Virus record (IMG/VR): IMGVR_UViG_3300028377_000002 | DNA length: 64,000 bases | Reading direction: 5' to 3' (one strand) | Origin: an uncultured virus (IMG/VR IMGVR_UViG_3300028377_000002) | Lineage: Duplodnaviria; Heunggongvirae; Uroviricota; Caudoviricetes | Part shown: positions 35,149 through 56,214 of the stretch, piece by piece | Numbering within the stretch: the first letter of the stretch is position 1 | How the letters are laid out: each line of letters begins with the position of its first letter | Program-made: the position numbers and the translations under genes | The notes under the pieces: generated by a model | What the model was told of the DNA's origin: nothing | The model's database searches: none | The model's input: the letters and a program-made list of their open reading frames with translations, nothing else

Positions 35149-35517
35149 GGGGGTGACTGGATTTGACCAGAGATAGACTGAGAGATACAGCATGTAGTGT
35201 TAGATTGGAAACACTTAAATACTCTATCAAAACTTTTAAATGGCGACATTTTAAACGTAGAAGAAAATTTCTTTGCAACAGCTTCTAGGAGCTTTGCTGG
35301 AGAGGTGGCTGTAGCCTAATTACAGCAAATGGTGGTAGCCCACCAAGAACCTGATGTTAAACAGTAAAATAATCGGATAGTACTTAACGTTAAAGTGCAA
35401 AACTTTTGGAAGGGATTAGAAACCTTAACCTGTTTGGATGAATCATTAAACATACCTAAACATGTAGACGGATTTTGATTCGTTTTTGGGACGTGGGTTC
35501 GAATCCCACCACCTCCA
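35149..35517 (+). ncRNA. ssrA: tmRNA
   Basis: 5' GGGGGTGACTGGATTTGAC, 3' GTGGGTTCGAATCCCAC-CACCTCC-A with G3-U70; tag ORF 35242-35319 GDILNVEENFFATASRSFAGEVAVA*. Confidence 0.92.
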
Positions 35518-35578
35518 CAATTAAAAAAAGCCATAATTTAAATTATGGCTTTTTTGTTTTAAGTAATTAAATTAACAT

Positions 35579-40910: not shown

Positions 40911-41393
40911 ATGAGTAAATTAAGAATTACAGAGTCTCAATTGAAAACATTGAAGAGTTTTCTAATCTACGAGAATGAAAACATCAAAGAAGAAGAAGAA
41001 GAAAATCCATGTTGGGATGGATATGAAATGGTAGGTATGAAAGAAAAGGACGGTAAAGAAGTTCCTAACTGTGTACCTAAAGAAAGTGTGGGTGAAAAGG
41101 GTGATATGATATCTGAGGAAATACCTGATAGATATAAAGACAAAGGTTTTAAAGAAGTAGGTAAAAAGAAACAAGCACCTGATGGAGCTGACCACAAATG
41201 GGAAGTACTAGCTAAGAAAGGTGATAAGTACAAAATAGTTAAAGGTGGTACTAGAGGAATGGAAGATTACTCTCAACACGGAGATGAAGAAAGAAAAGAA
41301 GATTTTTGGAATAGAATGGGTGGTAAAAACTCAGCTGATGCCAAAGACCCTTTCTCAGCTTTATACTGGCACAAAAAATTTGACACTTGGTAA
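40911..41393 (+). CDS. Putative head-packaged protein
   Basis: RITESQL N-terminus, CWDGY..GKEVPNCVP motif, TATTTATT upstream. Confidence 0.55.
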   Translation: MSKLRITESQLKTLKSFLIYENENIKEEEEENPCWDGYEMVGMKEKDGKEVPNCVPKESVGEKGDMISEEIPDRYKDKGFKEVGKKKQAPDGADHKWEVLAKKGDKYKIVKGGTRGMEDYSQHGDEERKEDFWNRMGGKNSADAKDPFSALYWHKKFDTW

Positions 41394-41645
41394 AATATGA
41401 AAAAGAAGTTTTTAAATAATAAGGAAAAGCAAGCTCTAAAACAAAAAAGAGCTGACATGATAGTTGAATCGTTTAATGATACCTATAATAAAATAAAGCG
41501 ATTGAATGAAAGTGATGAAGTTAAGTTGAAAATTTTTAAAGATTATTTAAAATCCTTAAATAACGGGTCTTTTGAAAAATTTGAGAATAATTTAATGAAA
41601 TAACAACTTTTAGAGTTTTTTGGATATTTATAATAAATAAGTATC

Positions 41646-42347
41646 ATGAGAAAGAAGAAATATTTATGCGTATTTAGACCCAAGAAAAATTGGGTTATTT
41701 AATTATGGAGAATATCAATTTAAATATGAACCTTTTTATATAGGTAAAGGTTGTAATAAAAGATGTGATGAACATTTACGTGAATCATCTCTTAAAGAAA
41801 AATCTTTTAAAAATAATAAAATAAATAAACTTTTAAAATTATAGGTTTAAACCCTAATTTTAAAAGTTAGTGAAAATTTATTTGAAGTTGATGCTTTTGA
41901 ATTAGAAATTAAAATTATAGAAAAAATTGGTAGATTTAATTAAAAAAAAGGACCTCTAACTAATTTAACTGATGGTGGTGACGGAATTTCTGGTTTAATT
42001 AAAACTAAAGAACATAGAGAAAACTTAGTAAAAGTCACACTGGTAAAAAAATGTCAGTAGAAGCTAGAAAAAAAATTAGTGATTCCTTAAAAGGTAAAAA
42101 GGGTCGAAATACTGGAAATAAGCATTCTGAAGAAACTAAAATTAAAATTAGTGAAACAAAAAAAGGTACTATTAGTTGGAATGCTAAATCGATTATTCAA
42201 TTATCTAAAGATGATAAAAAAATAAAAGAATGGAGAAGTGCTAAATCCGCTGCTGAAAAATTAAAATTAAGTCAAGGTAATATTTGGTCAGTAATAAATG
42301 GTGATAGAAATACTTGTGGTGGTTTTAAATGGAAATTAAAAATATAA
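41646..42347 (+). pseudogene. Degenerate GIY-YIG/NUMOD3/NUMOD1 homing endonuclease
   Basis: IYAYLDPRK..EPFYIGKG, GPLTNLTDGGDG, HSEETKIKIS, NUMOD1 ..GGFKWK spread over frames with stops. Confidence 0.8.
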
Positions 42348-42625
42348 TTATGAAAGAATTTATAAATAAAATGGGTTTTAGGTTAGCAAGTTGGTTATAC
42401 CAATATGGTATTATTGCACCAGAACTATTAGAACATAAAAAATATAGAATAATGAATGATGAGGAAATGGAAGATATAAAAAAATCTTTAAAGTTTTGGG
42501 GTGAATTATCGATGGATATGAAAATGGAATACTTAGGATATATGAAAAAATATAATGTTTTTGATGTAACTCCAGATAATATAACCGATGAACAATTAGT
42601 TGAATTATGGATGTATGCGGTTTAG
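42329..42625 (+). CDS. Hypothetical protein
   Basis: ORF only. Confidence 0.5.
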   Translation: MEIKNIIMKEFINKMGFRLASWLYQYGIIAPELLEHKKYRIMNDEEMEDIKKSLKFWGELSMDMKMEYLGYMKKYNVFDVTPDNITDEQLVELWMYAV

Positions 42626-42645
42626 TGTTGATGGTATTAGTTTGA

Positions 42646-43113
42646 GTGAATTGGTTAATTGAAACTCAATATAATACTTTAAAAGAAAGATTAATTGAAG
42701 ATTGTTGGGATGGTTACGAACAAAAGGGTATGAAAAAGAAGTTTTTAAATAATAAGGAAAAGCAAGCTCTAAAACAAAAAAGAGCTGACATGATAGTTGA
42801 ATCGTTTAATGATACCTATAATAAAATAAAGCGATTGAATGAAAGTGAGGAAGTAGATGAAACTACGGAAGAACCACAAATGGATGAAAAGGTCCAAGTG
42901 GGTCACCAAGACGACGAAGCTAAAATGCTTAAGAAAGAATTAATTAGAGCATCTAAGATGGTTCATATGTTATATGATAAATTAGATGATTATGATAAGA
43001 TGGAAGCTAAAGCAGACTTCCCTCAATGGTGGCAAAAGAAAATCATATTAGCCAACTCTTTACTAGATGATGCGTTTGATTATCTAGATGGTGAGGAAAA
43101 ATATTCAAATTAA
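42646..43113 (+). CDS. Hypothetical late protein (likely start ATG 42730)
   Basis: DFPQWWQKKI motif; N-terminus duplicated at 41397. Confidence 0.55.
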   Translation: MNWLIETQYNTLKERLIEDCWDGYEQKGMKKKFLNNKEKQALKQKRADMIVESFNDTYNKIKRLNESEEVDETTEEPQMDEKVQVGHQDDEAKMLKKELIRASKMVHMLYDKLDDYDKMEAKADFPQWWQKKIILANSLLDDAFDYLDGEEKYSN

Positions 43114-43166
43114 AAAGTTAATAATCAAGGGGTTATAAATTAATTTAAAAAAAAAGTATAAAAAAC

Positions 43167-43198
43167 CTTTGTTTAAGTGAAATGTTTTAGTATATTTG
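43167..43198 (+). promoter_or_regulatory. Bacteroidota sigma-A-type promoter of the tRNA operon
   Basis: CTTTG...TATATTTG (-33/-7 consensus). Confidence 0.75.
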
Positions 43199-43249
43199 TA
43201 CTATATATTAATAACGATAAGGGTGAAAACCTACAAATAAATTTAGAAA

Positions 43250-43357
43250 ATGCAACTTACAAGTATAATACATATTAGCAATTCGATGAGTAATTGGAGA
43301 CGTAATCCAATTCAGTCAGGTATGTCTATACTCGAAGGTGGAAGTTGGTCTGGTTAA
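43250..43357 (+). CDS. Putative leader peptide MQLTSIIHISNSMSNWRRNPIQSGMSILEGGSWSG
   Basis: Between promoter and terminator; composition matches downstream tRNA set. Confidence 0.7.
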   Translation: MQLTSIIHISNSMSNWRRNPIQSGMSILEGGSWSG

Positions 43358-43385
43358 ACAGAGAAACAAAACCAAAAGATAAGAT

Positions 43386-43419
43386 AAAAGTCCTGACAAA
43401 ATGTTAGGACTTTTTTTTT
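43386..43419 (+). terminator. Attenuator-type intrinsic terminator before first tRNA
   Basis: AAAAGTCCTGACA-AAA-TGTTAGGAC followed by T9. Confidence 0.8.
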
Positions 43420-43434
43420 GTAGTTCATTTACAT

Positions 43435-43511
43435 GGTGTATATAGCTTAACTGGATAAAGCACTCGGTTGTGGTCCGAGGGGATGTCAGTTCGAATCTGA
43501 TTATACACCCA
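43435..43511 (+). tRNA. tRNA-His(GTG)
   Basis: Cloverleaf with G-1; CTCGG-TTGTGGT-CCGAG. Confidence 0.88.
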
Positions 43512-43519
43512 AATAATAT

Positions 43520-43596
43520 GGTGTTTTTGTGCCAAATTGGAAAGGCAGTCAGGCTGTGACCCTGATTACATCGGTTGGATTCCGATATAACACCCA
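43520..43596 (+). tRNA. tRNA-His(GTG), divergent second copy
   Basis: TCAGG-CTGTGAC-CCTGA; T-loop TTGGATT. Confidence 0.65.
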
Positions 43597-43599
43597 AAT

Positions 43600-43672
43600 C
43601 GTGGTAGTCGGGATGACCAAGCTCTGGAAAGAGTATACTAGTTTTGTCGGGGTTCGAATCCCCTTTATTACG
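43600..43672 (+). tRNA. Atypical tRNA-like RNA, possible Ser(GGA)
   Basis: CGTGGTA/TATTACG acceptor, GGGG-TTCGAAT-CCCC T-arm, GCTC-TGGAAA-GAGT; short D-arm. Confidence 0.4.
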
Positions 43673-43736
43673 CTAAATTGTTCATTGACATATTGAAAAT
43701 AAGTTGTGACGTGGGTTAACCAACCCATGTCGACAC

Positions 43737-43815
43737 ACGAGCGCATCCATTGGAGAGGTAAGCGGTCTCCAAAACCGTGGCTTAGGCCCTGCTGGTTCGA
43801 CTCCAGCCGTTCGTG
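43737..43815 (+). tRNA. tRNA-Trp(CCA) with extra variable hairpin
   Basis: A1-U72, G73; GCGGT-CTCCAAA-ACCGT; GCTGG-TTCGACT-CCAGC. Confidence 0.65.
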
Positions 43816-43826
43816 CAATTATAAAC

Positions 43827-43898
43827 ACTCCTATGGTGAAATCGGTATCACGCTGGTCTCCAAAACCAGTATTCTCAGTTCGAGTCTGAGTAGGTGCG
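43827..43898 (+). tRNA. tRNA-Trp(CCA)
   Basis: CTGGT-CTCCAAA-ACCAG; imperfect acceptor stem. Confidence 0.75.
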
Positions 43899-43905
43899 CA
43901 AATAC

Positions 43906-43999
43906 GGAGGGGTAAGTCGAAAGATTCTGGGTAACGTCTGCGGTTTTGAAAACCGTTAGTTCCGAAAGGGGCGTATGGGTTCGAATCCCATTCCCTCCG
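43906..43999 (+). tRNA. tRNA-Ser(TGA), enlarged D-loop
   Basis: GCGGT-TTTGAAA-ACCGT, long variable arm, G73. Confidence 0.75.
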
Positions 44000-44118
44000 C
44001 AATAGTTACCCAGCTTGTTCCGTCATGGGTTATAAAATTTACATCGATTAACGGAACCCAATGAAGGAGACCTTACCGAAAAAGTAGGTTAAAGGTGTTG
44101 TAATAATGACTATTAATT

Positions 44119-44205
44119 GGAGAGGTGGCAGAGCGGGCGATTGCGCTGGTCTTGAAAACCAGTGACCGTGAAAGCGGTCCGTGGGTTCGAATCCCACCCT
44201 CTCCG
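44119..44205 (+). tRNA. tRNA-Ser(TGA)
   Basis: Canonical class II cloverleaf. Confidence 0.92.
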
Positions 44206-44292
44206 CAAATATTATCGGAAGATGATGTCTAAATCAATATTAGTATTTTAATGGTGAACTATAGATAGTCATTAAAGAAAGTTATTGATTTC

Positions 44293-44361
44293 GCAATAGA
44301 GTGTGGTGGTAGCACGGCTCCGTTAAAGGGGTAGGGTTCAGGTTCGATTCCTGTTATTGCA
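44293..44361 (+). tRNA. Atypical tRNA-like RNA, anticodon ambiguous (GTT or TTA)
   Basis: GCAATAG/TTATTGC acceptor, CAGG-TTCGATT-CCTG, GCTCC-GTTAAA-GGGGT. Confidence 0.4.
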
Positions 44362-44375
44362 ACTATTAAAATAAT

Positions 44376-44448
44376 GGACTGATAGCTCAGTGGTCAGAGC
44401 AGGGAGCTGTTAACTCTCAGGTCGTGGGTTCGAATCCCACTCGGTCCT
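44376..44448 (+). tRNA. tRNA-Asn(GTT)
   Basis: GGGAG-CTGTTAA-CTCTC; discriminator T. Confidence 0.85.
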
Positions 44449-44574
44449 CTAGAAAGTATGTGAAAGCATTAATTTGCAAGGGGATGTACGTTATCGAGTG
44501 GTGAGAGACTACTATGGATGATAGGTTACAAATAATCCAACAGACGCTTTGAGATTCCTATCACTTTCTAATTT

Positions 44575-44664
44575 GGCCATGTATCCGAGGGGGACTTCTA
44601 ACCCCTTATCCGTAAATGGAGATGAGATAATATCAAATGGGGGGTTCGAATCCCTCCATGGTCA
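44575..44664 (+). tRNA. Rearranged tRNA-like RNA, Arg(TCT)
   Basis: GGCCATG/CATGGTC acceptor, no 5' D-arm, CTTCTAA loop, long insert before T-arm. Confidence 0.55.
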
Positions 44665-44672
44665 CAAAACAA

Positions 44673-44745
44673 TGGTAGGTAGTACTAATGTTAAAACCTT
44701 CGCCTGTTAAGCGAAAAGATGTGGGTTCGAGTCCCACCCTACCAG
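44673..44745 (+). tRNA. tRNA-Asn(GTT)
   Basis: TTCGC-CTGTTAA-GCGAA; U1-A72, G73; weak D-stem. Confidence 0.78.
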
Positions 44746-44840
44746 CAACAAAAAGTGTATTATATTGCACTATTCGTAATTTTTTAGGTCACAAACACTA
44801 AAATTACTTATAAAAGTGTATTTAAATGCACTATAATAAT

Positions 44841-44912
44841 AAACTACTAAGGTGTGGCGACGCATACATCCACGATGATGAGGGTTTAGGTTCAAGTCCT
44901 AGATAGTAGTTT
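44841..44912 (+). ncRNA. tRNA-like RNA, degenerate
   Basis: AAACTACTA/TAGTAGTTT closing stem, TAGG-TTCAAGT-CCTA T-arm. Confidence 0.35.
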
Positions 44913-44919
44913 ATAATAC

Positions 44920-44991
44920 GCTGATGTAGCTCAGAGGCAGAGCAAACGGCTGTTAACCGTTAGGTCGAGATTTCGATATTCTCCATCAGCG
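44920..44991 (+). tRNA. tRNA-Asn(GTT)
   Basis: AACGG-CTGTTAA-CCGTT; G73. Confidence 0.85.
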
Positions 44992-45001
44992 CAATTTAAC
45001 T

Positions 45002-45089
45002 GGAAGGTAGGCAGATACGGTTTGCTGCGCTGGATTGCTAATTCAGTCTTCCCGAAAGGGAAGTGAGGGTTCGAATCCCTTGCCTTCCG
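45002..45089 (+). tRNA. tRNA-Ser(GCT)
   Basis: CTGGA-TTGCTAA-TTCAG, long variable arm. Confidence 0.85.
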
Positions 45090-45101
45090 CTCTCCAGAAA
45101 T

Positions 45102-45174
45102 GCCCCTATGGTGTAATTGAATAACACATGGCCCTTCTAAGGCTTTGTTCTAGGTTTGAGTCCTAGTAGGGGTA
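45102..45174 (+). tRNA. tRNA-Arg(TCT)
   Basis: GGCC-CTTCTAA-GGCT; cloverleaf. Confidence 0.8.
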
Positions 45175-45180
45175 CTATAT

Positions 45181-45257
45181 TGTGCAATAACCAGCATGTC
45201 TGATACACATGACCAAGGTAATGGTTGAAAATGTGGGTTCGAATCCCACTTGCACAA
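45181..45257 (+). tRNA. Rearranged tRNA-like RNA, Ile(GAT)
   Basis: TGTGCAA/TTGCACA, CATGT-CTGATAC-ACATG, GG segment 3' of anticodon arm. Confidence 0.65.
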
Positions 45258-45311
45258 CTAAACACTGCCCTCTGGCGCAATTGGTTAATATCCTATAAAA
45301 ACGTATCATAA

Positions 45312-45388
45312 TGGGTTGTATCCCCTCAAGCTTATATCTTGTAGAAAGGGTAATTGGTTACATGCGAGTTCGAGTCTCGTCTTCCCAA
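45312..45388 (+). tRNA. Rearranged tRNA-like RNA, Ile(TAT)
   Basis: CAAG-CTTATAT-CTTG; CCC/GGG stem; TAATTGGTTA after anticodon arm; two U-U mismatches in acceptor. Confidence 0.58.
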
Positions 45389-45396
45389 CTTAATAT

Positions 45397-45473
45397 TGCC
45401 TCGTATCGGCTCTGACTCATAATCAGTAGAAACCGTAGTTGGTTACACGTGGGTTCGAATCCCTCCGAGGCAA
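45397..45473 (+). tRNA. Rearranged tRNA-like RNA, CAT anticodon (Ile2/Met)
   Basis: TGCCTCG/CGAGGCA, CTGA-CTCATAA-TCAG, CGG/CCG stem, TAGTTGGTTA. Confidence 0.65.
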
Positions 45474-45606
45474 CAAATAAACTTGCATAATTAATTATGT
45501 TTGTGTATATTTGCAATGATTAAAACGAATAGACTATGATAAGAATCAAATTAATAACTTTAAAACAGCATGAACATTAGGTGGAAACACTATAAAAACG
45601 TTCATT

Positions 45607-46079
45607 ATGAAGAAAAGTAAAAGAAAGTGGGCTAGGACCGAAGCTCAAAAAAGAAAAGATTGGTCAATTAATCACACTAGTTATTATTCAGGTGGAGCAC
45701 CAAAATGGTTCTGTAAAATTTTCCATAACTCTGACAAACGTAGATTACAAAAATATCTGTCAGACATAGAAAAAGGCGCTGACCCTGATGAAGTATTCTA
45801 CAACCCTAGATACAATAATAAAGGTGCTAATTGGTACTGGTATTAATTCTTAGTCTGATGAGTAAGAATAGAAACCGAGCTAAACTTAGAAGGGCTGTTA
45901 ATAGCAGAGAGTACACCAAAATGATGAAGATAGAAAGTGTATACTGTCGAATTTGTGCAAAACGAGGTGGTGGTTATGACTTCTCATGTTACCCATCTAA
46001 TTTAAATCCGAAAGGATGGAGATGGAGGATAAATAGAAGTTGGAAAAATAACAGAAAGACCCAATGGAAAGAAAAATAA
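45607..46079 (+). CDS. Two small basic Trp/Arg-rich ORFs (45607-45846; about 45858-46079)
   Basis: Follow TATATTTG promoter at 45506. Confidence 0.5.
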
Positions 46080-46091
46080 TACTGTGGTCTT

Positions 46092-46200
46092 GGGGTAGTA
46101 GCTCAGTTGGTAGAGCAAATTGCGGATTAAATGATTTGAAAAATCGCCTTGCTAAAAGGGAATCAGTTATAGGTCGTAGGTTCAAGTCCTACCTACCCCG
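46092..46200 (+). ncRNA. tRNA-like RNA with branched anticodon domain
   Basis: Perfect acceptor, D and T arms; anticodon arm replaced by two hairpins. Confidence 0.7.
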
Positions 46201-46208
46201 CTAAACAT

Positions 46209-46294
46209 AGAGAGGTACTCAAGCGGTCCAAGAGGCTTGGTTGGAAACTAAGTAGGTCTGAAAAGGCGCATGGGTTCGAATCCCATTCTCTCTG
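46209..46294 (+). tRNA. tRNA-Ser(GGA)
   Basis: CTTGG-TTGGAAA-CTAAG, long variable arm, G73. Confidence 0.85.
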
Positions 46295-46315
46295 CTAACA
46301 TTAATTAAAGATAAA

Positions 46316-46573
46316 ATGGAATTTAATATCATTGATGAAGAAGAATTAAAATATATTGTTAATGTTGATGATGACGGTGATGTCATCATGAGGTACAGCA
46401 AAAGCAGTATTTGGAGCACTGGCACTAGAGGAAACCACATAGGTTCTTTGGAAGACACTGGTAATGACATAAAGATTAAATTAGATGGTAAAGAACTTAC
46501 TTTAGATTATCATGAATTTTTACAATTAAAGTTATTAATGGATATTAAAGTAGAAATAGACGATAATTTATAA
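46316..46573 (+). CDS. Hypothetical protein
   Basis: ORF only. Confidence 0.55.
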   Translation: MEFNIIDEEELKYIVNVDDDGDVIMRYSKSSIWSTGTRGNHIGSLEDTGNDIKIKLDGKELTLDYHEFLQLKLLMDIKVEIDDNL

Positions 46574-46580
46574 ATAATAT

Positions 46581-46654
46581 TGCGGGGTGGACTGGAGCGG
46601 TTCCAGCTCGGTCTCATAAGCCGAATGACGTGGGTTCGAATCCCACCCCCGCTA
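46581..46654 (+). tRNA. tRNA-Met(CAT), initiator-like
   Basis: Unpaired 1:72, GCGGGG acceptor, TCGGT-CTCATAA-GCCGA. Confidence 0.8.
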
Positions 46655-46860
46655 CTAAACATAAAACTAAATAAACCTAATTCAGGTAATTTTAAAAAAA
46701 GGGTAAAGGGTGTTAGAGCTAAAAAAGTCTATATGTTTGATTTGAATTGGAAATTCACTAAAGATTTTAATTCAGCTAAAGAAGCTGGGGAATATAGGTG
46801 TAATTGGTGGTGCTATACAATATGCCTGTACAGAAAGTAAAAATTTTAAATTTAAATATA

Positions 46861-47385
46861 ATGAACAAAAAAAGTAAAAACCTACAGATATGTATCTTAG
46901 GACATGCCAGGCACGGAAAAGACACATTCGCTGAAATATTAGAAGATAAGTTTGATTTTAAATTCAAATCATCATCAATGGCGGCCTCAGAAATATTCAT
47001 ATATGACTTATTAAAGACAAAATATGATTATAAGTCGTTTGAAGAGTGTTTTGAAGATAGGGTAAATCATAGGGCTGAATGGCATGACTTAATATGTGAA
47101 CATAATAAAGATAATAAAGCTAGATTAGCTTCTGAAATACTTGAAGATGCAGATTGTTACGTTGGTATGAGAAGTGACAAAGAAATTGATGAATGCGTTA
47201 GACAAGGTTTGTTTGACTTAATCATATGGGTTGATGCAAGTGAAAGATTACCACTAGAACCTAGAGACTCTTTCAAAATTGATAAATCATATGCCGATGT
47301 AATTGTAGATAACAATAGTACGTTAGAACAGTTTACAAGAAGAGTTTTAAATTTAGGTAAAATCCTATATGGTAATACAAAATGA
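46861..47385 (+). CDS. dNMP kinase-like P-loop protein
   Basis: GHARHGKDT Walker A; GMR..E; ADVIVDNN. Confidence 0.65.
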   Translation: MNKKSKNLQICILGHARHGKDTFAEILEDKFDFKFKSSSMAASEIFIYDLLKTKYDYKSFEECFEDRVNHRAEWHDLICEHNKDNKARLASEILEDADCYVGMRSDKEIDECVRQGLFDLIIWVDASERLPLEPRDSFKIDKSYADVIVDNNSTLEQFTRRVLNLGKILYGNTK

Positions 47386-47393
47386 ATGTATAT

Positions 47394-47463
47394 TGCGTGA
47401 CTCCTAGGTGGAGGGCTTACTCTCATAAGGTTCGCTGGGTCGGTTCGAATCCGATTCACGCTA
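47394..47463 (+). tRNA. tRNA-Met(CAT)-like, divergent
   Basis: GCGTGA/TCACGC, CTCATAA loop, GTCGG-TTCGAAT-CCGAT. Confidence 0.5.
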
Positions 47464-47470
47464 CTCTGAA

Positions 47471-47544
47471 AGTCTCATAGCATAAATGGATAATGCAGTG
47501 GCCTCCTAAGCCAAAGATTGTGAGTTCGAGTCTCACTGGGACTA
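47471..47544 (+). tRNA. tRNA-Arg(CCT)
   Basis: TGGC-CTCCTAA-GCCA; cloverleaf. Confidence 0.85.
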
Positions 47545-47564
47545 CAATTTATTTTCGATATCTA

Positions 47565-47611
47565 ACCCCCTTAGTTCAATGGATAGAACAATCGACTACG
47601 AATCGATAGAT
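47565..47611 (+). pseudogene. Truncated tRNA-Arg(ACG), 5' part only
   Basis: D arm and ATCGA-CTACGAA-TCGAT present; T-arm and 3' acceptor missing. Confidence 0.65.
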
Positions 47612-47683
47612 GCACTTATAGTTTAATTGGAAAAACAGTAGTTTACGACACTACAGACAAAGGTTCGAATCCTTTTAAGTGTT
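47612..47683 (+). tRNA. tRNA-Arg(ACG)
   Basis: GTAGT-TTACGAC-ACTAC; cloverleaf. Confidence 0.75.
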
Positions 47684-47715
47684 CACAACTACATTAATAT
47701 TTTCAATATAACAAG

Positions 47716-48504
47716 ATGAAACATAATAGAGCCTTTCTAGAGCAGTTGAATGGTGAATGGTTAGACGACTTTGTTTACATATCAAAGGAACGTTTAAAGG
47801 ATATGGACTTTGAAGTAATTCCTTTCGACGGCGATGATATAGAAAACACACTATCTTGTTATGTACTAGACATATCCAAAGACATAATAATAGGTTCAGT
47901 TGAATCAACCACCGTCTTCTTTAAAGAATGTGGCGTTGAAGTACCTGAATATTTAGGGTACCCAAAACAATTAAGAGAGTTTTTAGGTAGAGACATACGT
48001 GAACATCAATTTAACTATCTGTATAACTTAGACACACCGTTTTTTATCAAACCAAGTAAAGGGGTGAAAAAATTTACAGGCTGTCTAATAGATAATGTTA
48101 AAAGTTTGCAAATGATAAGTGAATTCTACGATGTTAAGGATAATGATGGTATATTTGTATCTGATAAAGTAGAATTTGTATCTGAATATAGATGTTTTGT
48201 ACACGAAGAAGAATTAAAGGGTATAAAACACTACTCAGGCGACTTTAAAGTGTTTCCTAACGTAGATATCATAGAAAAGATGATAGAGTCTTACACGGAA
48301 GCTAATTGCGCTTATACATTAGATGTGGGTGTTGATAAAGAAGGTAATACTTTATTAGTTGAAGTAAACGATATGTGGGCCATTGGTTCATATGGTTTTG
48401 ATGCTAGAACTTAGGTTCTTATGTGCGTAAGGAGAATGTTTGAAATTGGTAGGCAAAATAATGGTGAAAAAACTCCATTATGGAAAAAGATTCGAAGAGA
48501 TTAA
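47716..48504 (+). CDS. ATP-grasp protein (R2K/DUF4343-like) with in-frame TAG at 48412-48414
   Basis: FFIKP..KKFTG, SEYRCFV, YTLDVG..LVEVND..GSYG; frame stays open 29 codons past TAG. Confidence 0.7.
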
Positions 48505-48523: not shown

Positions 48524-48781
48524 ATGAATACAGCTAATTTCGATGTTAAAAACGGTACAGGTGTTTTATTATGTTCAGAGTGCAATAAGATAATAAAAAC
48601 TGAAGGTGATTTTGACATAGCTGAGAAATACGCCTATGAAGGGTTAGTATCCATGATGCCTAGATATTGTGATAACCACAATTATAAAGAAATGTCTGGT
48701 AAAGACAGAGCAAGGGAGTTACGTAAAAAAGGTATAAAAGAGTTTAAAAACAATATTAAGAATAAATTAAGAGAAGGATAA
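48524..48781 (+). CDS. Small zinc-binding protein
   Basis: LLCSEC...YCDNH. Confidence 0.5.
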   Translation: MNTANFDVKNGTGVLLCSECNKIIKTEGDFDIAEKYAYEGLVSMMPRYCDNHNYKEMSGKDRARELRKKGIKEFKNNIKNKLREG

Positions 48782-49704
48782 TGGAAAAAAACGTTTTAGG
48801 TGTTGCAGTAACTAGACCAAACCAAGTTTTAAATATAATGAGGGGTGTTAGTGGTTCTGGTAAGTCAACAAAAGCTAGAGAGATTGTTGGTGATGGTGTA
48901 ATCCACTCAACTGATGATTTAATTGAAAGCATTACAGGTGACTATGATGGTTTTTTCAAAAGTATGATTAAAAGCGGTAAGTTTCATAGATTAACTGAAA
49001 TGCATAATAAAAACTTTTTAAACGCCAAAAAGTCAATGGAGTCTGGTGTCAAAAATATAGTGATAGATAATACCAATATTAAAGCTAGTGAGCCTAAAAA
49101 ATATGTGGTAGAGGCTTTAAAACTTGGATATCACGAAGATAACATAAAGATAGTTGATGTGGGTTCTGGCGGTGCAACCGTTAAAGTCCTTAGCGAAAGA
49201 AACACACATGGAGTGCCATTAGATAAAATAAAAAAGATGGTGGCCTCACACAAAGGTGTGGGTGAATTAACCGTTAAAAAAATACTTGAAGCCAAAGACT
49301 TGGATAAAAGAAATGATGTTTTATATGCGGCGGTTGTTTTAGATGATGAATCTATAAAAATTTTAATTGAAGCATTTACAACTGGATTATCAGAAGACTG
49401 GAAAACTATTGCACATCACATGACAATAGTTTTTGGTAAAGGTCTAGAAGATAAAGAAGAAATAGGTAAAGAAGTGGAGTTAAAAGTTACTGAGTTAGGT
49501 TTTAGTGATTTGGCCATGGCCGTTAAAGTAGAAGGTTATCCTTCATCTAATTTAATACCTCACGTCACAGTAGCAGTGAATATAGAAAATGGTGGCAAAC
49601 CATATGATTCCAACAAAATAACTAATTGGGGTAAAGTTGATTTGGGTTACGAGCTTAAATTATACGGAACTGTAACTGAAGTGAAGAGAGAAGGTACAAC
49701 ATAA
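48781..49704 (+). CDS. Polynucleotide kinase (P-loop) fused to 2H phosphoesterase
   Basis: MRGVSGSGKST, IDNTN, RNTHGVP; HMT and HVT 2H motifs. Confidence 0.82.
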   Translation: MEKNVLGVAVTRPNQVLNIMRGVSGSGKSTKAREIVGDGVIHSTDDLIESITGDYDGFFKSMIKSGKFHRLTEMHNKNFLNAKKSMESGVKNIVIDNTNIKASEPKKYVVEALKLGYHEDNIKIVDVGSGGATVKVLSERNTHGVPLDKIKKMVASHKGVGELTVKKILEAKDLDKRNDVLYAAVVLDDESIKILIEAFTTGLSEDWKTIAHHMTIVFGKGLEDKEEIGKEVELKVTELGFSDLAMAVKVEGYPSSNLIPHVTVAVNIENGGKPYDSNKITNWGKVDLGYELKLYGTVTEVKREGTT

Positions 49705-54414: not shown

Positions 54415-54487
54415 GGTCGATTAGCTCAGTTGGAAGAGCGGGAGATTCTAAACCTCTTAGTCATCGGTTCGAACCCGATATCGACCA
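54415..54487 (+). tRNA. Amber suppressor tRNA (CTA)
   Basis: GGTCGAT/ATCGACC acceptor, GCTC/GAGC D-stem, GGAGA-TTCTAAA-CCTCT, ATCGG-TTCGAAC-CCGAT; own promoter TATATTTG at 54394. Confidence 0.82.
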
Positions 54488-56038: not shown

Positions 56039-56110
56039 GCGCAGGTTCCAGAGCGGCTATGGTGTTGCCCCGCAAGGCAATGTAGGGTGGTTCGAATCCA
56101 TCCCTGTGCT
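56039..56110 (+). tRNA. tRNA-Cys(GCA), atypical anticodon loop
   Basis: GCGCAGG/CCTGTGC, U73, TTGCC-CCGCAA-GGCAA. Confidence 0.65.
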
Positions 56111-56214
56111 CTTAAAATTAAATAAAATGAAATAGATAAAAATTAGAGGTCCAACTTACGTAGTTTTCAATTAGGAGATTAAAAAAAATAACAAAATACG
56201 TAAAATTTAAAAAT

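Follow-up and report, generated by a model that had tools for sequence, protein, structure and literature searches.

A candidate leader-peptide attenuator, matched in its codons to the tRNA genes downstream, in an uncultured jumbo phage

In enterobacteria, leader-peptide attenuators control the trp, his, leu and thr operons, and ilvGMEDA has a multivalent leader. The pheM leader controls the pheST operon (phenylalanyl-tRNA synthetase), and T-box riboswitches bind uncharged tRNA directly and need no ORF. In phages, tRNA clusters with a counter-defence role are known in T5-like phages (against retron/PtuAB, PrrC and PARIS) and in mycobacteriophages (against VapC-type nucleases). In most discussions, phage tRNAs supplement codons constitutively or serve as decoys against tRNA-cleaving defences. 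The general model of leader-peptide transcription attenuation is that of PMC1183508. Phage tRNAs replace host tRNAs and counter tRNA-cleaving defences (excerpts of PMC11555353 and PMC10264068), and this replacement gives a plausible reason for a phage to sense its tRNA supply.

The window (the whole stretch of DNA analysed, 64,000 nt of an uncultured, AT-rich jumbo phage) contains a tRNA array and also a tmRNA. An element located after an ORF that ends at 43113 and before the first tRNA, a tRNA-His starting at 43436, is probably a ribosome-mediated (leader-peptide) transcription attenuator gating the phage tRNA operon. This reading, first put forward from the letters of the window, is supported by the architecture, by the covariation of both helices and by the match between codons and tRNAs. 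The features of the locus are the following.

43169..43198, + strand: Bacteroidota-type promoter (TTG at 43169-43171, a 19-nt spacer, TATATTTG at 43191-43198)
43221..43232, + strand: small 5′-UTR hairpin GGGU-GAAA-ACCU within an A-rich stretch
43250..43357, + strand: leader ORF with an ATG start, 35 codons, encoding MQLTSIIHISNSMSNWRRNPIQSGMSILEGGSWSG
43262..43306, + strand: regulatory codon run SIIHISNSMSNWRRN (codons 5-19)
43315..43397, + strand: antiterminator, a long imperfect hairpin with the base helix GTCAGG (43315-43320) / CCTGAC (43392-43397)
43390..43419, + strand: intrinsic terminator (stem 43390-43398 / 43402-43410, loop AAA, nine T at 43411-43419)
43436..45473, + strand: first tRNA block, with His, His, Trp, Trp, Ser(UGA), Asn (three genes), Ser(GCU), Arg(UCU), an Ile(GAU)-type gene and several low-scoring tRNA-like genes
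45483-45513, + strand: second promoter-like motif (from the motif scan)
45483..47684, + strand: second part of the array, with small ORFs, Ser(GGA), Met/Ile2(CAU), a dNMP-kinase-like gene, Arg(CCU) and Arg(ACG)

As in the attenuators of amino-acid operons, a short ORF with regulatory codons is found near the promoter together with an intrinsic terminator, and the position of the ribosome would govern a pairing that sequesters the terminator 5′ arm. As in the ilv and thr leaders, several amino acids would be sensed by one leader. Unlike in those operons, the cargo consists of tRNA genes and not of biosynthetic enzymes, and the product would act directly on the codons of the sensor. The phage leader would sense seven amino acids, and four such leaders together all 20. 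A single long hairpin, its apex carrying the stop codon, forms the antiterminator, and a conserved 1:2 protector did not emerge from the folds. The element is also viral, with a Bacteroidota-type promoter and SD-less initiation, and is without sequence match to the leader families of Rfam. Like pheM, it would set a leader-peptide attenuator over a component of decoding and respond to the decoding of cognate codons, but pheM/pheST is cellular and concerns a synthetase and a single amino acid, whereas the phage leader would control the tRNAs themselves. With T-boxes, it would share the sensing of tRNA status through a choice between terminator and antiterminator upstream of translation-related genes; unlike in T-boxes, the conserved feature is an open frame, and there is no match to the T-box model. 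In the counter-defence papers, the subject is which tRNAs are carried and, in one of them, a strong promoter. Neither "attenuat" nor "leader" occurs in the texts of PMC11555353 and PMC10264068, and no description of a leader peptide or attenuator before phage tRNA genes was found in full-text searches of openly accessible literature. Classical attenuation would gain a new cargo, and its range would come to include viruses and expression signals of the Bacteroidota type.

The nearest record (G001) matches the window at 1-36056 and stops short of the leader, and an exact search of IMG/VR with the 21-nt terminator gave no match. No tRNAs adjoin the relatives of the upstream protein (42646-43113), and its gene is therefore not in synteny with the array. 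The relatives of the dNMP-kinase-like protein (46804-47385) are present in 34 IMG/VR loci, many with a tmRNA and with arrays of the same isotypes, and blastn, nhmmer and tblastn with the window leader place homologues just upstream of the arrays in those loci. Each of these homologues (encoding, for example, MRTINIHMISISNWRRNS... and MRNINIHINSISMWRRNS...) occurs with the same promoter, A-rich leader, terminator and tRNA array, and nine homologues found without the motif described below keep the open frame.

A degenerate motif built from the similarity-found leaders retrieved 70 IMG/VR loci and four genome_contigs matches. Three of the latter are true members, on contigs filed under MAGs; the fourth (L184), which has no ORF, was rejected as matching by chance. 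In 81/81 motif matches there is an ORF with an ATG start (two of them cut by the contig end), so that the open frame expected of homologous leaders in the sequence-only reading is kept throughout. After deduplication, 50 distinct leaders remain, from uncultured jumbo phages. Part of the core is fixed by the motif, so that the codons concerned are to some extent conserved by construction; the retrieval motif did not include the start, the tail, the position of the stop, the promoter or the terminator. In cultured phages, a blastn search with 42600-44200 matched tRNA genes only, and no relative of the dNMP-kinase-like protein in cultured phages exceeds 51% identity. The sequencing runs sharing words with the stretch are, for DNA, lake and salt-lake metagenomes; two RNA runs contain tRNA pieces only.

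In 38/50 leaders, a conserved ORF of ∼56 aa is found between the terminator and the first tRNA, and in these the tRNAs are therefore not the sole cargo; neither the window nor its nearest relatives have this ORF. The protein belongs to no Pfam or PHROG family, and its AlphaFold model (pLDDT 83.5) has no Foldseek match in the PDB at E ≤ 0.001. It matches one uncultured 635-kb phage record, with no leader or tRNA nearby.

The promoter and the 35-codon ORF had both been proposed from the window, and both are recovered, with the TTG 19 nt upstream of the TATATTTG box. The form TTG / TAnnTT[TG]G corresponds to what we take to be the Bacteroidota consensus. A TTG-N17-21-TAnnTT[TG]G motif is found at the equivalent place in 48/50 homologous leaders, and on the + strand between 43000 and 48000 there are just two such motifs, that of the leader among them. 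A small UTR hairpin similar to that of the window (UTR MFE ≤ −3 kcal/mol) is present in 25/48 leaders. SD-like motifs before the leader ATG are found in 0/50, and the A content at −20 to −1 is 66%; the SD-less start and the A-rich upstream region presumably fit Bacteroidota expression signals.

The regulatory run reads AGT ATA ATA CAT ATT AGC AAT TCG ATG AGT AAT TGG AGA CGT AAT (43262-43306). All 15 codons (codons 5-19) specify residues within {S,I,H,N,M,W,R}, and 24 of the 35 residues of the whole ORF belong to that set, with Lys absent, as had been claimed. Across the six frames of the 64-kb window, the leader has the sole run of at least 10 set residues, and the set makes up 29.9% of the residues in window ORFs of at least 120 aa. 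The sampling of isoacceptor codons noted earlier also holds: Ser and Arg are each represented by both of their codon families, and Ile by two codons.

ARAGORN with default settings finds 14 tRNAs at 43436-47684, namely two His, two Trp, three Ser, three Asn, three Arg and one CAU, with the restriction that many tRNAs of these arrays are unusual, so that the isotype calls are imperfect, and that the CAU anticodon allows no split between Met and Ile2. Rfam and relaxed ARAGORN runs add several further odd tRNA-like genes. Among the seven isotypes attributed to the array in the sequence-only reading, His, Trp, Ser, Asn, Arg and Met(CAT) are thus present at default settings, but Ile appears only at the relaxed threshold, as the Ile(GAU)-type gene at 45171-45258; this gene can be aligned to the Ile tRNAs of relatives, which are unusually long. 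The T-run of the terminator and tRNA-His are separated by 16 nt, and the motif scan finds no promoter motif between 43198 and 45483. From this gap and the lack of a motif, the first tRNA block appears to be reachable by read-through only. At 1.1 kb past the array, there is a putative RNA repair gene of the kinase/CPD type.

In the family, the core of the leader (codon 2 to the Ser after WRRN) has 796/849 residues (93.8%) in the seven-residue set, versus 294/715 (41.1%) in the tail and 29.9% in the background. The chief departure from the set is Thr (ACA) at codon 3 (38/849 residues), and Thr tRNAs are rare in the downstream block. The frequent core codons are AAY, ATT, ATA, AGA, CGY, AGY, TCG, ATG, CAT and TGG, and the frequent downstream anticodons GUU, GAU, CAU, UCU, ACG, GCU, UGA, GUG and CCA. 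In the 42 loci with at least 2500 nt downstream, 356/373 same-strand tRNAs (95%) are for His, Asn, Trp, Ile, Met(CAU), Ser and Arg. Leader content and array isotypes, the comparison suggested earlier for related phages, therefore agree within the family. An excess of ANN codons in the core was considered as another theme (ANN codons being those of tRNAs carrying t6A37) and was rejected: Lys is almost absent, and the invariant CAT, TCG, TGG and CGY fit the array only.

The order N-I-H...S-I-S-N-W-R-R-N-S is fairly well conserved, as it would be in a functional peptide. The ORF could then encode a micro-protein with its own terminator, the tRNAs being expressed by leak or from another promoter and the complementarity described below being incidental. 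We consider this highly improbable. The residues between "IH" and "W" appear in 18 orders (MISISN, INSISM, RMSISN, MSNSIN, etc.), 106/106 of them within the set, and the substitutions there are chemically radical (mean BLOSUM62 −0.80) and yet remain within the tRNA set. In the divergent leader MRNNNIHSIHSNWSNIRRSIHS..., the order is reshuffled with still 21/21 residues in the set. A micro-protein also leaves the array in need of a promoter, for which there is no space ahead of tRNA-His.

The strong terminator claimed at 43386-43419 is recovered by the terminator scan: the program call is 43386-43414 plus tail, and it is the sole strong + strand terminator of the array region. The hairpin (43390-43410) reads GTCCTGACA-AAA-TGTTAGGAC, and the spacer from the leader stop to the terminator stem is 32 nt in the window. 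A terminator follows the stop codon by 22-38 nt in 50/50 leaders. On the 48-sequence alignment, it is 92.3% paired with a covariation of 0.576 versus 0.232 in shuffled alignments (0/500 shuffles as high).

The 5′ arm of this terminator has a second partner within the ORF. The proposed GTCAGG/CCTGAC pairing with its nested pairs is borne out: the strands are complementary, and the minimum-energy fold of 43310-43398 contains them with the nested TGTCT/AGATA and inner pairs (MFE −21.5 kcal/mol, z −4.1). The apical loop (43353-43358) holds the leader stop codon (43355-43357). Throughout the family, the RNA that begins where the regulatory codons stop and runs through the terminator 5′ arm folds into one long imperfect hairpin, with the stop codon inside it in 50/50 leaders and in the apical loop in 38/50. 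The mean MFE of the antiterminator is −18.3 kcal/mol (z −3.0; z below −2 in 40/50) versus −11.4 for the terminator hairpin. The antiterminator and the terminator are mutually exclusive, and the 5′ strand of the former is in the translated region past the regulatory codons, which end 8-11 nt ahead of the antiterminator segment (in the window and in the relative L096).

The 5′ segment of the antiterminator is the part of the ORF just before a conserved GGTATG, and its sequence tracks that of the terminator 5′ arm. The pairs observed are GTCAGG/CCTGAC (window), GAGTCGG/CCGACTC, TCAAGG/CCTTGA, CTAGGTC/GACCTAG and GAATTCGG/CCGAATTC. Over all leaders, the cognate duplexes between ORF segment and terminator arm average −10.7 kcal/mol versus −8.0 for non-cognate ones; with 18 terminator-type representatives, the values are −10.1 and −7.1 kcal/mol, and 0/20,000 permutations are as good. 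The eight pairs of the antiterminator helix in alignment A1, which has some register shifts, are 75.6% paired with a covariation of 0.283 versus 0.178 (0/500 shuffles as high). Two-sided changes occur in 6/8 of these pairs, a count reached by 21/500 shuffles. This covariation of an ORF segment with the terminator arm speaks against a micro-protein with incidental complementarity.

Folding with and without ribosome-masked segments had been suggested in the sequence-only reading. With a ribosome on the regulatory codons, 92-98% of leaders show pairing of the terminator 5′ arm with the ORF segment in transcripts ending before the terminator 3′ arm. The antiterminator is formed in 76% without a ribosome, and the same 76% is obtained when a ribosome is placed at the stop codon, in a model that ignores sterics; folding alone leaves the polarity unfixed. 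In full-length RNA at equilibrium, the terminator wins in 50/50 leaders when free, in 48/50 with a ribosome on the Trp codon and in 50/50 with a ribosome at the stop (mean margins 8.3, 5.2 and 9.9 kcal/mol, respectively). An equilibrium switch in the full-length leader is rejected, a ribosome parked on the regulatory codons giving no flip to the antiterminator. With the terminator favoured at equilibrium in every modelled state, the antiterminator can act only kinetically, as in classical attenuators. No conserved, dominant 1:2 protector hairpin was found among the leaders folded. The full-length MFE structure of the window includes a hairpin at 43262-43332, and the candidate protector pairing ACAUAC/GUAUGU is almost invariant and is thus unable to show covariation.

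These results allow the proposed mechanism to be set out. Transcription would begin at the promoter at 43169-43198, and a ribosome would enter the 35-codon leader. With charged tRNA scarce, the codons would be read slowly and the ribosome would be held upstream of 43315, which would let the antiterminator (43315-43397) fold once its 3′ strand exists. The terminator 5′ arm would then be sequestered, and RNA polymerase would continue into tRNA-His and the array. With fast decoding, the ribosome would unwind the whole 5′ strand of the hairpin up to the apical stop codon; the hairpin being kept open, the local terminator would form and transcription would end at 43419. The antiterminator in 92-98% of leaders under a parked ribosome, together with the leader geometry, implies that slow decoding would give read-through and fast decoding termination. 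Judged from general knowledge of ribosome footprints, a stalled ribosome would stop short of the antiterminator segment, and a stop-to-stem distance of 22-38 nt would be too far for a terminating ribosome to mask the terminator stem.

We infer from this that the ORF is translated and that stalling switches the operon on; the virus probably makes these tRNAs when ribosomes run short of them. Candidate triggers are cleavage of host tRNAs by defence nucleases, decay of host tRNAs after shut-off, uncharged tRNA and the codon demand of the phage. Since the sensor's codons are read by the very tRNAs that the operon yields, the circuit would exert a self-limiting negative feedback on tRNA supply. A leader listing the amino acids of its array would show a virus measuring decoding speed codon by codon and answering with the matching tRNAs. 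Such a leader names the tRNAs that the phage expects to lack, which makes the reason for carrying particular tRNAs directly testable.

A switch of another kind is conceivable: a translation-independent RNA element could bind a protein or, in the manner of a T-box, a tRNA, or the attenuator could have the inverse polarity, with stalling leading to termination. Both would accommodate a terminator favoured at equilibrium in each modelled state, and a ribosome on the last one or two regulatory codons would indeed reach the start of the antiterminator segment. We regard these as unlikely. Against these, the frame and the positions of start and stop are conserved, and an Rfam scan of 43100-43435 gave no family (leader families, T-box) at the gathering score and, at the permissive threshold E ≤ 1, only a chance-level match to MicC (E 0.28). 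The 8-11 nt between regulatory codons and antiterminator segment are as expected if a stalled ribosome leaves the segment free, and the stop, 22-38 nt ahead of the terminator stem, is judged too distant for masking.

A tentative but more serious alternative keeps the attenuator and changes its purpose. In place of an alarm for the cleavage of host tRNAs, the leader could be a homeostat or timer, on by default as long as it goes untranslated or is translated slowly and shut once phage tRNAs or general translation capacity suffice, or it could sense amino-acid starvation by way of uncharged tRNA. Without a ribosome, 76% of truncated transcripts form the antiterminator, and no conserved protector hairpin was found, so that an untranslated leader may read through, as a device on by default would. 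Products that read the sensor's own codons fit this purpose as well. The putative kinase/CPD-type RNA repair gene past the array keeps the defence reading alive, and phage tRNAs do counter tRNA-cleaving defences (PMC10264068 and PMC11555353, as excerpted).

The match between leader and array extends to other leader types. In a generic scan of the earlier loci (short ORF, terminator and tRNA cluster), only this leader family and one doubtful case were found; the other three types emerged only from reading whole related genomes. Four complete relatives of 360-369 kb, with 45-65 Rfam tRNA matches each, were compared (a fifth, of 380 kb with nine matches, was left out). Each has four tRNA blocks, and each block has a promoter, a short ORF and a terminator, so that 16/16 blocks own a leader. 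The four types are the following.

Leader MTTTTTYQTQYQPKGGKP..., then Pro, Gln, Lys, Gly, Tyr and Thr tRNAs
Leader MRNTFNILVLLSLCLLV..., then Cys, Val and Leu tRNAs
Leader MRTLTNIFDFAFFAAEEDY..., then Phe, Glu, Asp and Ala tRNAs
Leader MRTINIHMISISNWRRNS..., then His, Trp, Ile, Met, Asn, Arg and Ser tRNAs

With the isotype set of each block defined by its own ARAGORN calls and leader residues 2-20 scored, the fraction of residues in the set of the own block is 0.714 versus 0.109 for the other blocks. No other of the 331,776 possible assignments of leaders to blocks scores as high as the true one (exact permutation p = 1/331,776). The agreement between leader and array, whose covariation the sequence-only reading proposed to test, thus holds across types in 16/16 blocks. 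All 16 leaders share the antiterminator geometry, with a stop-to-stem gap of 25-33 nt, and their cognate duplexes are at −10.9 versus −7.4 (0/50,000 permutations as good). Four unrelated leader peptides, each matching its own block, are not what a micro-protein would lead one to expect.

The union of the four isotype sets comprises all 20 amino acids. We lean towards the view that in this lineage of jumbo phages the cell's decoding capacity is sensed in four channels, with the operons {W,S,H,N,R,I,M}, {P,Q,Y,T,G,K}, {C,V,L} and {F,E,D,A} each behind a codon-matched attenuator. Exact replacements for host tRNAs that have been cleaved, degraded or left uncharged would be switched on, and then off again through the new tRNAs. 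If true, these would be the first known tRNA genes controlled by the translation of their own codons. Coverage of 20 amino acids by four blocks also resembles a general control of supply, as for the homeostat or timer, and not an answer to one nuclease. The leaders are compact natural parts (∼250 nt) that would report the supply of defined sets of tRNAs.

The window has just the His/Trp/Ser/Asn/Arg/Ile/Met block; the remaining three would lie past its 3′ end if the gene order is as in the relatives. Recoding of TAG, considered because of a CUA tRNA, was rejected for the window. Outside the array, a suppressor tRNA at 54415 has its own TATATTTG ∼15 nt upstream and stands without a leader.

In the four complete related genomes (G002–G005, ∼360 kb each; loci L187–L202), 45–65 tRNA genes per genome are grouped in four blocks, and each of the 20 amino acids belongs to just one of them: {W,S,H,N,R,I,M}, {P,Q,Y,T,G,K}, {C,V,L}, and {F,E,D,A}. 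Every one of the four blocks occurs with its own matched leader and its own terminator.

In the leaders of the Pro/Gln/Tyr/Thr/Gly/Lys block of relatives (for example, loci L196 and L198), the peptide PKGGKP is invariant. Its codons form a small hairpin of the GGCGGGAAGCC type, immediately 5′ of the antiterminator segment (the ORF stretch pairing with the 5′ arm of the terminator).

In a strain variant from a salt-lake DNA run, compared over window 43188–44194, the leader and both tRNAHis genes (43188–43576) contain zero substitutions, the sole difference being one additional T in the T-run; for 43577–44194, 18 substitutions are listed.

Between window positions 43596 and 46200, several tRNA-like genes are given low scores or missed by ARAGORN and Rfam, and some of the tRNAs are longer than usual; examples are:

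43737–43816, tRNATrp, 80 nt
43906–43998, tRNA-like gene
44292–44362, tRNA-like gene
45171–45258, Ile-type tRNA gene, 88 nt
45397–45473, tRNA-like gene
46092–46200, tRNA-like gene, 109 nt

The same long tRNA genes for Met, Ile, His, and Trp are also found in relatives.

In 38 of the 50 leaders of the family, the terminator is followed, ahead of the first tRNA, by a conserved ORF of ∼56 amino acids (for example, in relatives, L096:12859–13029 and L101:6348–6515), which the window lacks. Its consensus is ..ELVRKLG..K...F.KDFD.I.DKY..KA...GY.GEL.F.KE.G...IFV.I, and it matches no family in Pfam or PHROG. The AlphaFold model (pLDDT 83.5) has the fold order beta-alpha-alpha-beta-beta, with no match in the PDB. 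In one relative, two leaders of the same family (L121 and L122, on the contig shared with L085) lie 1560 nt apart, each with a separate terminator and a separate copy of the small ORF.

The array and its leader are flanked by the following protein genes of the window:

42051–42347, small ORF with NUMOD3/NUMOD1 motifs, just 5′ of the leader region
47716–48414, ATP-grasp protein of the R2K clade, directly 3′ of the array
48781–49704, protein with a polynucleotide-kinase-like P-loop domain, behind the ATP-grasp gene

NUMOD3 and NUMOD1 are DNA-binding modules of homing endonucleases. The 48781–49704 protein also gives a weak match to a tRNA-ligase cyclic phosphodiesterase domain, and it may be an RNA/tRNA repair enzyme. 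On the 5′ side, the module KKKFLNNKEKQALKQKRADMIVESFNDTYNKIKRLNES recurs in two neighboring ORFs (41397–41603 and 42646–43113), the latter sharing a CWDGYE motif with ORF 40911–41393; the C-terminal domain of 42646–43113 has many IMG/VR relatives, without linkage to tRNAs.

Away from the array, the window also contains these RNA genes:

35149–35518, tmRNA of the phage, with the tag ...FAGEVAVA and an Rfam score of 106.6 bits
54415–54488, amber-suppressor-type tRNA (CUA anticodon)
56039–56111, second odd tRNA

The CUA tRNA has its own TATATTTG ∼15 nt upstream and no leader. Recoding of TAG in the window was rejected, as TAG read-through lengthens ORFs no more than TGA read-through does. In many relatives, a tmRNA occurs at the same relative place as in the window.
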